The notes under the pieces: generated by a model
Told to the model about the DNA's origin: nothing
The model's input: the letters and a program-made list of their open reading frames with translations, nothing else
Databases searched by the model: none
NCBI GenBank assembly: GCA_964559275.1
Contig: CAZLGC010000013.1
Span: 4,208-22,122, forward strand
DNA from: an uncultured Candidatus Saccharibacteria bacterium
GTDB lineage: Bacteria; Patescibacteriota; CALEFQ01
Reading direction: 5' to 3'
DNA: 17,915 nucleotides
Position numbers and translations under genes: made by a program
In this document: positions 3,615 to 6,470 of the stretch, piece after piece
How the letters are laid out: each line of letters opens with the position of its first letter
Numbering within the stretch: the stretch's first letter is position 1

Positions 3615-6470
3615 ATGGGTTACGAAGAAGACCGCGATCTTGAAAGCCAGGGTCGCAGTAATCGCAGTTCTCGTGATCGTCGCGTGCCGATGGGGCGTGA
3701 GCGCGAGAGTTTCACCGGAGACGTAGTCGTTCCCCAGGGAGTCTATGTCTTTATCATGGACCGCAATTCGGGCGCAGTCACAACGTCCGTAGGTCCGACA
3801 AAGGCCGCTGTCGGCGAGAATCAGGAGCTTGTGATTTATAATCACAAGACTCGTCTCATCGAGGTGGTTTCCGATCCGGAAGTTGCCAAGCAGTCTTTCG
3901 TTCATGCCAACGAGGATGAATACATAGTCCTCCACAACCCTGTCGAGGAAGCCAGCTCGAAAGAGAAAGAACATCCGAAGACTGGTGGCGCCAGTCAGGC
4001 AGTAGACCTGAGCCAGGGTCAGCGGGTCAACATCCCCGGACCGGCTGAATTTGCCCTTTACCCCGGGCAATACGCCGAGGTCATCCCCGGCCATTTGATG
4101 CGTTCCAACCAGTTCCTGATCTGCCGAGTCTATAATGACGAGGCGGCGCGGAAGTTTTGGAGCGAAGCGGTGCTCAAGCCGCAGCAGGTCCAAACGCAGG
4201 CCGAAGAAGCCGACCCGGATGAATCCGCTGACAGAAAACCGGCTGATGATGCGGGGAAGAAGTCTGGAAAAGGTAAGTCGGGCAAGTCCGCCGTCGAGGT
4301 TCCGCCCGATGACAGCTCTGCTATCGTCGCCGAAGGATCGGCTCCCGAAGAGCTGACCACCGGACAGCGAATCGTTATCAAAGGAACAGATGTTTCTTTC
4401 TTCATCCCGCCGACCGGGATCGAGGTCGTTCCGGAACAGAGTGAACAGCCGGAACAGAGTGAACAGTACGTCCGTGACGCTGTTTCACTCGAGCGCCTGG
4501 AGTACTGCATTCTCCAGGGAGAGGACGGTAACAAGCGGTACGTGCGCGGCCCGGCGGTTGTGTTCCCGCGTCCTACCGAAGTTTTCTTCAGCCAGGACGG
4601 CGAGCGCAAGTTCCGAGCCCTGGAGCTGAACCAGCTGATGGGCATCCATATCAAGGTGATCGCTGATTACCGAGATGATGTCCTGGGGACGAACCTCGAG
4701 GCGGGTGACGAGATCTTCATCACCGGCAAAGAAATGTCCATTTACTATCCCCGTCCGGAACATGCGTACATCACCTATGGAGATGGCGAAATCATCCACT
4801 TTGCCGTGGCTATCCCCGAAGGGGAAGGTCGCTACGTTCTCAGTCGCGAGACCGGCAAGGTGGAAATGATCACCGGACCCAAGATGTTCCTGGCCGACCC
4901 GACGAAGTACAACTATATTCGCCGGGTTCTGACACGGGATCAGTGCAAGCTGTGGTTTCCGGGGAGCAAGGAGGCTCTGGAGCACAACCTGGCACTCGCC
5001 GCGCAGCGTGAAGATCGTGGCATGTACGATGCTGATGTTGATGACATGCCGACATCGCGTGGGCTGGTTGCCGATCGTCAGCGAGGTGAAGTCCGTGCCG
5101 ACCATCTGGTCGGGGAGCGTATGACTCGACGCTCCAAGTTCACACCACCGCGTACGATCACCCTGGACACCAAGTACGATGGAGCAGTCCTTATCGACGT
5201 CTGGCCGGGTTATGCGGTCATGATCACGGACCGGAAGGGAAACCGTCGGGTAGTAGTTGGCCCCCAGCCGGTTCTGCTGGAGTACGACGAGACCCTGGTG
5301 ACGCTGGAAATGTCCACCGGCAAGCCCAAGACCACCGACAACCTGATTCGCGATGTTTATCTCAAGGTGCGGCACAACTCCGTCAGCGACATCGTGCAGA
5401 ACCTCGAGACATCCGATCAGGTCAAGGTTTCTGTCAAACTCAAGTACCGAGTGGATTTCGAAGGTGAGACTGGCGAGGAGCGAGAAAAGTGGTTCGACGA
5501 GGCCAACTACGTCAAGCTGCTGTGTGACCATATTCGCTCTCTGCTGCGAGGAGCCTTCCGCCGGACTACGGTGGCCGAGCTCTTCAAAGACCCGACGGCG
5601 TTCATTCGCGACACCATCCTCGGTGTTCCTGGTGAAGAGGGGCAGGGTAGACCCGGCAAGCCGTTCGAAGAGAACAGCATGCGGGTCTATGACGTGGAAG
5701 TTCTCGCCTTCATGGTCGATGACGAACATGTCAAGGCCACTCTGATTCAGCAGCAGCGGCACTCCTTCGATCGCACGATCCAAGTCGAGCAGAAGGAACA
5801 GAAACTGGTGCTGACTCGCCGGGAGGCAAAAGCCGACCAGGAGCTGGCCCAGATCGAGGCTGATACCAAGCAGCGCCAGAGTGAGCTGGAACTCCAGACC
5901 ACTCAGGTCGGGGAAGAGCACAATCGTCAGATGGCCAATGCTGAGGCTCAAACAGCTCAGCATGCTGCCGAGTTGGATGCAGCCGAGCGGGAGCGTGATC
6001 ACACTGCATCTCTGGATAAGATCGCCAAGGAGGCGATCGAGAAAGATAAGCGGCAGTCGACCTGCCTGGCCAGCATCAAGAAACGCGCGGCGATTTCGGA
6101 AGAGGAGCGGGCTATTGCCAAGGCTGACGCTGATCAGCGACAGGCAATCGCGGAGCGTGACCTGGAGTTTGCGCTCAAGAAGCTGGTTGCTGAGGTTGAG
6201 GCCGAGACTTCCAAGGCCGGAGCGTGGACGCCACAGCTGGTGTCTGCACTCTCCACGTTCGGTGAGCAGACCTTGCTGGCGAAGATCAGCGAGTACGTGG
6301 GGCCATTGGCGGTGCAGCGCGGTATGAGCTTGCAGGACTTCGTCCAAAAGCTCTTCCACAGCACGCCGTTGGCAGAGCTTTTCGAAAAGTCAGAGGCTGA
6401 GACGGTTGACCCGGACGCCGGGATGTCTCACCGCGGCAGCGAAGACTTCGACGACGACGATCGATACTAG
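3615..6470 (+). CDS. Major vault protein (MVP) homolog, i.e. the vault shell protein. It has an N-terminal Arg/Ser-rich extension, MVP repeat domains, a shoulder domain and a cap-helix coiled coil.
   Basis: 951 aa. Segment-by-segment motif correspondence to eukaryotic MVP. [26 protein letters not shown] corresponds to [71 protein letters not shown] corresponds to [84 protein letters not shown] corresponds to [39 protein letters not shown]. A long A/E/Q/R-rich coiled coil ([31 protein letters not shown]...) corresponds to the cap helix. The comparison is from memory of the MVP sequence, not a computed alignment. Confidence 0.8.
   Translation: [951 protein letters not shown]
4431..4466 (+). 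repeat. Perfect 18-bp tandem duplication (2 copies) inside the MVP-like gene, encoding [12 protein letters not shown]
   Basis: CCGGAACAGAGTGAACAG occurs twice, head to tail. In frame, within an acidic low-complexity insert. Confidence 0.9.

Follow-up and report, generated by a model that had tools for sequence, protein, structure and literature searches.

The 17,915-nucleotide stretch of DNA analyzed here, hereafter the window (GenBank assembly GCA_964559275.1, contig CAZLGC010000013.1, from an uncultured Candidatus Saccharibacteria bacterium), carries on its forward strand an open reading frame (ORF; 3615..6470) for a 951-aa major vault protein (MVP) homolog, a new and unusually decorated member of a known, experimentally unexplored family. 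Its decorations are probably the outcome of slippage, which on this fast-evolving branch would have lengthened disordered and mostly acidic stretches at positions where the vault-like shell protein permits it. According to this reading, the gains would have occurred on the protein's own long terminal branch, at sites that tolerate them: a new upstream ATG with its own Shine-Dalgarno (SD) sequence would have been recruited, yielding a 25-codon 5' extension; the disordered linker that the whole family carries in the third repeat would have doubled; a 6-aa tandem duplication would have lengthened an inter-repeat junction loop; 29 residues would have been added to the cap-helix; and the C-terminal tail would have become longer and strongly acidic. 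Growth by replication slippage or short tandem duplication can be read directly from the two PEQSEQ copies of the junction loop, and we infer it for the degenerate GK(S) repeats of the linker and for a 9-bp xEQ sub-repeat. The decorations would thus be flexible charged segments on an intact conserved assembly core, adding about 20 negative charges per subunit beyond those of relatives from the same clade.

A conserved MVP core with an apparently shortened repeat array

The product belongs to the MVP family and comprises vault beta-repeats, an SPFH-like shoulder and a long cap-helix. The initial annotation of the window had named it a vault protein homolog, and searches of domain, sequence and structure databases bear this out. 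Pfam detected the MVP_shoulder domain (aa 588-699, E = 1.4e-18, 67.5 bits; cut-off, 25) and Vault_3 (aa 542-582, score exceeding the cut-off), while searches of the PDB with phmmer and with a family profile returned major vault protein chains only. With the AlphaFold2 model as query, Foldseek ranked vault chains from human, rabbit and rat first (best E = 3.9e-29), and flotillin and further SPFH cages and proteins next. No match was obtained for the protein in PADLOC, NCBIfam or PHROGs. At the 140 positions that are nearly invariant in the family (at least 90% conserved among 263 relatives), the protein keeps the conserved residue in 130 cases and carries mostly conservative substitutions in the others. 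More than 5000 homologs were retrieved in a word-indexed search (E ≤ 1e-3), the best at 732 bits and with coverage of 93-96%; an exhaustive search matched about 1056 clusters at 50% identity, and a scan of 185,579 species-representative genomes yielded 461 matching stretches. Among the roughly 15 billion proteins searched, none exceeded about 49% identity, and a single-protein scan of GTDB genomes did not find a close relative. Bacterial MVP homologs were reported in 2013 (Daly et al., PMC3762200) and 2019 (Sokolskyi, bioRxiv 10.1101/872010), and phage copies in 2023 (bioRxiv 10.1101/2023.11.10.566534); no experimental characterization of any bacterial homolog was found in the literature searched.

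The architecture was established by comparing the bacterial profile with human MVP, whose sequence was verified against PDB 11dr_A (100% identity, 893 aa). Using hhalign, residues 289-911 were aligned to human residues 273-843 with 99.5% probability, a match that runs from repeats R6-R9 through the shoulder and the cap-helix into the beginning of the cap-ring. The N-terminal part was aligned to human R1-R2 with 89% probability, the motifs EYIVLHNPV and FALYPGQ pairing with human HYCTVANPV and FPLYPGE, respectively. The region left between both alignments, aa 161-288, corresponds to one repeat, the second half of which follows a pattern like that of the human-repeat half TGEEWLV...VP...EEVL. 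Counted from the alignment and the predicted secondary structure, the protein therefore appears to have about seven repeats (R1, R2, one at aa 161-288, and the R6-R9 equivalents) and not nine as in eukaryotic MVP, a layout that appears to be common to the whole bacterial MVP family. The single repeat at aa 161-288 would stand for human R3-R5, the region that binds the MINT/INT domain of PARP4, and carries the family-wide disordered acidic linker. The beta-rich modules that precede the shoulder are modeled with predicted local distance difference test (pLDDT) scores above 90.

All features of the gene lie on the forward strand. R1, R2 and the first half of the third repeat span 3720..4178 (aa 36-188, pLDDT of about 90 or higher), with R1 and R2 assigned from the hhalign match. 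The R6-R9 equivalents, assigned in the same manner, span 4479..5375 (aa 289-587) and include a disordered R8 loop (aa 470-516) that corresponds to human loop 429-449, which is unresolved in the human structure (PMC13347060). The SPFH-like shoulder, aligned to its human counterpart and matching the Pfam model, follows at 5376..5723 (aa 588-703), and the cap-helix, a single helix in both AlphaFold2 models that aligns with the human cap-helix, at 5724..6218 (aa 704-868).

Placement on a long terminal branch

The phylogenetic position of the protein was assessed with a neighbor-joining (NJ) tree, a distance-based method, inferred from 81 genome-encoded homologs and two huge-phage copies. The protein falls inside a clade that holds all nine named Patescibacteria MVPs (100/100 NJ bootstraps), encoded in metagenome-assembled genomes (MAGs) of Saccharibacteria, Paceibacterota, Magasanikiibacteriota and Parcubacteria, and its terminal branch is the longest among the 81 genome-encoded sequences, at about five times the median length. 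Its properties were compared with those of 10 clade relatives, mostly Patescibacteria (named loci within L006-L079), and, at the family level, with 254 near-full-length relatives for segment lengths and with about 260 to 263 relatives for charge, cap-helix length and conservation. At 951 aa the protein is about 100 aa longer than the family median of 851, and its net charge of -42, against a family median of -16 and values of -10 to -20 in clade relatives, places it among the most acidic of the roughly 260 relatives. Four segments were found not to be conserved parts of the MVP repeats, in agreement with the initial annotation, which had taken such segments for lineage-specific decorations; they exceed nearly all relatives, and every relative of the same clade, in length. 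A halophilic "salt-in" adaptation was considered for the acidity and rejected: the neighboring proteins have isoelectric points of 4.5-9.7, and the alanyl-tRNA synthetase (AlaRS) encoded in the window, whose nearest named relatives are from Patescibacteria and the aquifer candidate-phylum genome ACD_63C, is no more acidic than its own relatives. Taken with the MVP tree, these AlaRS affinities make a Patescibacteria host probable.

The two phage homologs (L085, 2974-5412 in the 735-kb phage LR756501.1; L086, 2974-5460 in the 462-kb phage LR756500.1) are stop-to-stop ORFs of 813-829 codons with 42-43% identity to the protein studied here, and they group within the Patescibacteria MVP clade in the NJ tree. 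Their placement as sister to it is probably an effect of long-branch attraction.

Expansion of variable segments within the third repeat, the cap-helix and the C-terminus

The largest of the internal variable segments is a disordered linker, acidic with a lysine patch, located inside the third repeat (4179..4352, aa 189-246), in the first inter-strand loop between the first strand plus short helix of that repeat and its conserved TGQ strand. Such a linker, rich in P, E, A, D, T, G, S and K, is found in nearly every bacterial relative, with a median length of 27 aa (range 0-71). Here it measures 58 aa, a length reached or exceeded in only 6 of 254 relatives (clade relatives, 21-50 aa), and has a net charge of -7 versus a family median of -4; pLDDT falls below 50 for aa 194-237. 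The linker holds a degenerate GK(S) repeat, the last two units of which form an imperfect 9-bp repeat (GGTAAGTCG/GGCAAGTCC, 4272-4289) with differences at third codon positions only, which looks like the sign of an older duplication. An independent, perfect 17-aa tandem duplication is present in the linker of another family member, P0036.

Downstream of the linker, the conserved strands of the third repeat (4353..4430, aa 247-272) form a 26-aa stretch with many invariant or nearly invariant columns that ranks among the best conserved of the family, and separate the linker from the loop at the junction with the R6-equivalent repeat. This loop contains a perfect 18-bp tandem duplication (4431..4466, aa 273-284), in which the unit CCGGAACAGAGTGAACAG occurs twice and encodes PEQSEQ twice. 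The duplication had been reported in the initial annotation and was recovered with Tandem Repeats Finder (TRF) at 100% match. It is the sole such repeat in the window and exceeds chance expectation by far: when the codons of the ORF were shuffled 300 times, no perfect tandem run longer than 11 arose, against the 18 observed. The loop spans 13 aa and has a net charge of -4; clade relatives have 6-10 aa there, and the median length in the family is 7 aa (range 4-29). Removing the duplication leaves PEQSEQY, which at 7 aa equals the family median and can be compared with PEQGDRF in a Magasanikiibacteriota relative (L021). Moreover, the 18-bp unit itself consists of two diverged 9-bp units, the xEQ sub-repeat, so slippage would have occurred at least twice.

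These observations modify the description given in the initial annotation, in which nt 4180-4470 were taken for a single acidic, lysine-rich insert between repeats that contained the duplication. Only the PEQSEQ loop lies at an inter-repeat junction, the larger linker being inside the third repeat. There are two variable sites, aa 189-246 and aa 273-284, split by conserved aa 247-272, and the duplication belongs to the second of them. Nor is either segment newly inserted: both sites are hypervariable in more than 260 bacterial relatives and have been expanded here.

An additional expansion, missed by the initial annotation and seen in the clade comparison, affects the cap-helix, which is 29 aa longer than usual. 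The cap-helix segment Q714-A859 comprises 146 aa, against 117 aa in 9 of the 10 clade relatives and 106 aa in the tenth. The 117-aa class accounts for 179 of 263 relatives, the other classes being 106, 128, 135, 139 and 146 aa. Because these lengths are separated by steps of 11 and 7 residues or multiples thereof, the distribution suggests that only register-preserving cap-helix insertions are tolerated. The C-terminal tail (6366..6467, aa 918-951) is 34 aa long, ends in EDFDDDDRY as annotated, and has a net charge of -9. An equally acidic tail occurs in only 0.4% of about 260 relatives; among those of the clade, the net charge runs from -1 to +3. Residues 930-951 score below 50 in pLDDT.

The comparison thus delimits the change-tolerant parts of a bacterial vault-type shell protein, namely the N-terminus, one intra-repeat loop, one junction loop, the length of the cap-helix in discrete steps, and the C-terminal tail. 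Knowing which parts are tolerant and which are not is useful for construct design and for reading future structures. The decorations as such are ordinary low-complexity growth and open no new question.

The N-terminal extension and the start of translation

In total, 35 aa precede the first conserved residue, D36, whereas the median is 9 aa in the 254 relatives and clade relatives have 6-16 aa. The excess is due to a lineage-specific extension of 25 codons (3615..3689), for which disorder is predicted, aa 1-30 staying below a pLDDT of 50 in both AlphaFold2 models. The initial annotation had described a basic extension of about 33 aa, and of this description the unusual length stands (25 aa upstream of M26) and the basic character does not. 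Positive and negative residues are balanced both in aa 1-25 (6 K/R, 6 D/E) and in aa 1-35 (8 K/R, 8 D/E), giving a net charge of 0 in both cases, and it is only the excerpt of 19 aa quoted there, the arginine- and serine-rich core of an extension with 6 arginines in 25 aa, that has a local charge of +4.

By alignment, residue M26 (3690..3692) coincides with the start methionine of most homologs and would be the ancestral start codon, now internal, since the sequence M26-GRER matches the M..GRER N-termini of clade relatives; residues 1-25 would then constitute a lineage-specific 5' extension. Across 80 genomic loci, the start codon is located 6-16 codons before the D36 equivalent, is ATG in all but one case and is usually accompanied by an SD sequence. 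A longer N-terminus is excluded for each of the 10 clade relatives by an in-frame stop located no more than 28 codons from the D36 equivalent. Nine of them have an SD-like motif before the canonical ATG; in L006, the remaining one, the codon there is a GTG flagged as having an SD.

The extension is probably translated from ATG 3615, because the only SD sequence serves this codon, none precedes ATG 3690, and the base composition changes at about position 3600. The SD sequence in question, AAGGAGG (3600..3606), was read directly from the DNA; 8 nt separate it from ATG 3615, and no other strong SD occurs at the 14 gene starts examined in the window. The guanine-plus-cytosine (GC) content is 0.33 in the spacer (3446-3614) and 0.56 in the extension, and the step falls at about 3600, not at 3690. 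The other gene starts examined in the window have no recognizable SD, which makes the AAGGAGG of the MVP gene conspicuous; either the host uses SD sequences little or some of these starts are mis-set.

The competing possibility is that the extension is not translated, the real start being M26 (ATG 3690) and nt 3615-3689 a 5' leader that is open by chance. We regard it as unlikely, although it is the best-founded of the alternatives considered here. In its favor, M26 lies 10 codons before D36, at the canonical spacing, and is followed by the GRER typical of the clade; 25 stop-free codons are not improbable by chance; and the GC content at third codon positions (GC3) of the extension, 0.44, is lower than that of the remaining gene. 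Codon usage was considered as a coding test and set aside, 25 codons being too few to discriminate. Against an untranslated leader, the relatives have their SD directly before the canonical start, whereas here the sole SD, at 8-nt spacing, serves ATG 3615, the upstream sequence of ATG 3690 has no SD-like motif, and the rise in GC content does not coincide with the latter codon. The M26 AUG also lies within a local hairpin of the predicted mRNA fold, but this is weak evidence, and the predicted fold of the 5' leader is uninformative (z = -1.8).

Charge and putative topology of the decorations

In eukaryotic vaults, the N-termini are located inside at the waist and the C-termini outside at the caps (PMC7916137), and R1 forms the interface between both halves at the waist (PMC12280208, PMC13347060). 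If this topology applies to the bacterial protein, the extension would lie inside the waist, close to where R1 joins the halves, with the acidic tail outside on the cap poles. By repeat equivalence, the human counterparts of the PEQSEQ-bearing junction are those of R3/R4 and R4/R5, whose residues Q164 and D214 contact the MINT domain of PARP4 on the lumenal face (PMC12280208); hence, by analogy, the junction loop is probably lumenal. The expanded segments could then act as a polyanionic brush that tunes solubility, assembly or cargo electrostatics, and would not include a nucleic-acid-binding arm.

The initial annotation had proposed precisely such an arm, by comparison with the arginine-rich arms of capsid proteins: the extension would face the lumen and could bind nucleic acid or cargo. 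In the full form of this model, as weighed here, the other decorations would be functional cargo or interaction modules. The extension is indeed N-terminal and predicted to be disordered, with its arginines and a core of local charge +4, and the lumenal location of the eukaryotic N-terminus at the waist, where engineered N-terminal peptides form rings (PMC7916137), is compatible with this proposal. We nevertheless consider it improbable. A capsid-like nucleic-acid-binding role is unlikely because the extension is charge-neutral and the elements predicted nearby are polyanionic (loop, -4; linker, -7; whole protein, -42), with the other decorations contributing about -20 per subunit. The window contains no Rfam family, vault RNA included, and no tRNA, and no vPARP- or TEP1-like partner, the window proteins scanned giving no PARP, TROVE or vWA match. 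All-against-all ORF clustering of 80 loci revealed no conserved operon partner, and the extension is unique to one terminal branch. The analysis thereby corrects an attractive but unsupported idea of an RNA-binding arm.

Vault engineering provides a precedent for additions at both ends of the protein, N-terminal additions of 12-31 aa being tolerated and forming lumenal rings at the waist and C-terminal additions being displayed on the caps (PMC7916137). A natural 25-aa N-terminal extension and a longer C-terminal tail are therefore structurally plausible. If the extension is translated and cages form, these natural additions would mirror the sites that engineers use for loading and targeting vaults. 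A much more speculative extrapolation, to which we give little credence, is that ultra-small Patescibacteria assemble a shortened, hyper-acidic vault-like cage of about seven repeats in which 25-aa polyampholyte arms ring the waist interior, as in CP-MVP and NS5A-MVP, and zip the halves together or tether basic cargo, while acidic C-terminal tails coat the cap poles. Were this true, it would constitute a natural precedent for terminal "functionalization" of vault shells and offer a handle on the cargo of bacterial vaults.

Origin of the decorations

Recent horizontal acquisition from a high-GC donor or a phage would account at once for the decorations and for the high GC content of the gene, and was weighed as another explanation, in which the decorations would come from the donor and not have evolved in this lineage. 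The gene has a GC3 of 0.68 versus 0.40-0.54 in 14 neighboring genes, it comes with an SD and a terminator of its own in a host mostly lacking SD sequences, and MVP homologs of the same clade occur in huge phages of 462-735 kb. However, every Patescibacteria locus examined has an MVP gene with a higher GC content than its flanks (+2 to +19 points). The GC excess is therefore a trait of the Patescibacteria MVP clade and gives no evidence of recent transfer. Since, in addition, the Patescibacteria MVPs form one clade in 100/100 bootstraps and no relative, donor or other, has the same decorations, such an acquisition is hardly probable. The loci with a gene-over-flank GC excess are L006, L008, L010, L017, L020, L021, L069, L078 and L079 besides the window, with a maximum of +19 points in a Magasanikiibacteriota MAG; for 78 loci drawn from all phyla, the median excess is +2.4.

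The duplication is not an assembly artifact, a possibility raised in the initial annotation, because four independent assemblies agree in every base of the gene. Perfect tandem repeats are a textbook substrate of slippage, and the initial annotation had suggested length variation, but, judged from the one clone sampled, an artifact or a hypervariable contingency repeat with a copy number that varies among cells is very improbable: the exact 951-aa product is encoded on four contigs from four samples, assembled independently (two from JGI, one each from ENA and Logan), the 36-bp array is far below sequencing-read length, and no variant copy number was seen in these four contigs. All four have two copies and represent one clone, found by an exact-protein look-up unable to return length variants; their overall identity is at least 99.97%, the differences from the window being one homopolymer indel at 3055 and single-nucleotide polymorphisms at 2910 and 6587. 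The JGI metagenome collection, which does not hold this population, was scanned twice, with a gap-tolerant pattern and with a plain flank, and gave no match, even though the pattern matches the window.

Several considerations weigh against the preferred explanation, slippage-driven growth at permissive sites of a vault-like shell protein. Self-assembly of bacterial MVP homologs into a closed vault, a 78-mer of two 39-mer halves, is putative, and the topology of the decorations is taken from eukaryotic vaults by analogy. The translated start is inferred; M26 occupies the very position of the canonical start, and most host genes of the window have no SD sequence. The arginine- and serine-rich core of the extension (+4 over 19 aa) could serve as a binding or phosphorylation motif. 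Finally, there is no close relative from which to order or date the expansions.

Comparison with known vault and SPFH proteins

Eukaryotic MVP (rat and human; PDB 4V60, 4HL8, 9BW5, 11DR) is the best structural match of the protein and shares with it an alignable R6-R9 region, shoulder and cap-helix, recognizable R1 and R2 motifs, and the disordered R8 loop. Sequence identity, in contrast, is only about 16-25%, and the bacterial protein differs in its apparent repeat number (about seven versus nine), in the acidic disordered linker of the third repeat, which has no eukaryotic counterpart, in the 25-aa N-terminal extension, and in an acidic C-terminus where eukaryotic MVP has its cap-ring tail. 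The eukaryotic partners vPARP, TEP1 and vault RNA are likewise absent from the 17.9 kb analyzed around it.

The MVP-like proteins of other bacteria, such as the "Shoulder domain protein" of Enhygromyxa salina and those of Plesiocystis pacifica and Saprospira grandis (H6L4P8), are encoded by stand-alone genes and have 40-49% identity over their full length, the same architecture and the same four variable sites. In the protein described here, unlike in these, all variable sites are at or near the upper tail of the family distribution, and the N-terminal extension is found in no other member. The Patescibacteria MVPs are alike in the GC excess of the gene over its flanks and in the N-terminal M..GRER, retained here as M26-GRER, but all the decorations and the 29 additional residues of the cap-helix are absent from the 10 relatives. 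Engineered vaults carry designed peptides on eukaryotic MVP, at the N-terminus (CP-MVP, NS5A-MVP, pVI-MVP) or at the C-terminus (MVP-Z, -EGF, -TAT), whereas the additions found here are natural, disordered and either neutral (N-terminal) or acidic (C-terminal). Finally, the shoulder and cap-helix match the fold of the SPFH cages flotillin, prohibitin, HflK/C and stomatin (Foldseek E of about 1e-7 to 1e-4), and several database sources label bacterial relatives of the protein as "SPFH domain-containing protein". SPFH proteins, however, lack an N-terminal beta-repeat array and are membrane-anchored, while the protein analyzed here has a charged N-terminus without a predicted membrane segment.

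Genomic neighborhood

The MVP gene is apparently monocistronic. In the 33% GC spacer, a consensus scan picked out a promoter-like site (TTGACA-17-TATTGT with an upstream TG; 3500..3528, forward strand), as a consensus match only (10/12), and a bidirectional terminator-like hairpin with a 14-bp stem (6519..6550) separates the gene from a convergent sortase gene. The only ORF clusters recurring at MVP loci were generic histidine kinases (17/81) and Ser/Thr kinases (11/81).

Upstream of the MVP gene, an apparent three-gene operon (7-3445, forward strand) encodes a DUF8128 protein (label taken from strain L001), a TrwB/VirD4/HerA-like ATPase of 588 aa with a long, basic, low-complexity C-terminal tail, and a 114-aa protein without a Pfam match. 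The ATPase matches the PADLOC model "mad8" (E = 1.3e-17), and in strain L001 the 1-bp homopolymer indel at 3055 shortens it to 585 aa. Downstream, four consecutive, tightly packed genes (9862-12431, forward strand) encode E/K/R-rich, coiled-coil-like proteins of 110, 310, 238 and 191 aa, of which the 310-aa protein, the only one scanned, has no Pfam match. They are followed by the AlaRS gene (12437-14764, forward strand), in whose 775-aa product the catalytic domain is interrupted midway by a complete histidine-phosphatase (PGAM-type) domain (Pfam His_Phos_1, aa 223-403, E = 1.5e-42; RHG and SHG motifs readable); tRNA-synt_2c is matched in two stretches, the best being aa 5-219. The insert is shared by about 10 AlaRS relatives with 59-75% identity, and all other matches are AlaRS proteins of 587-597 aa without it.

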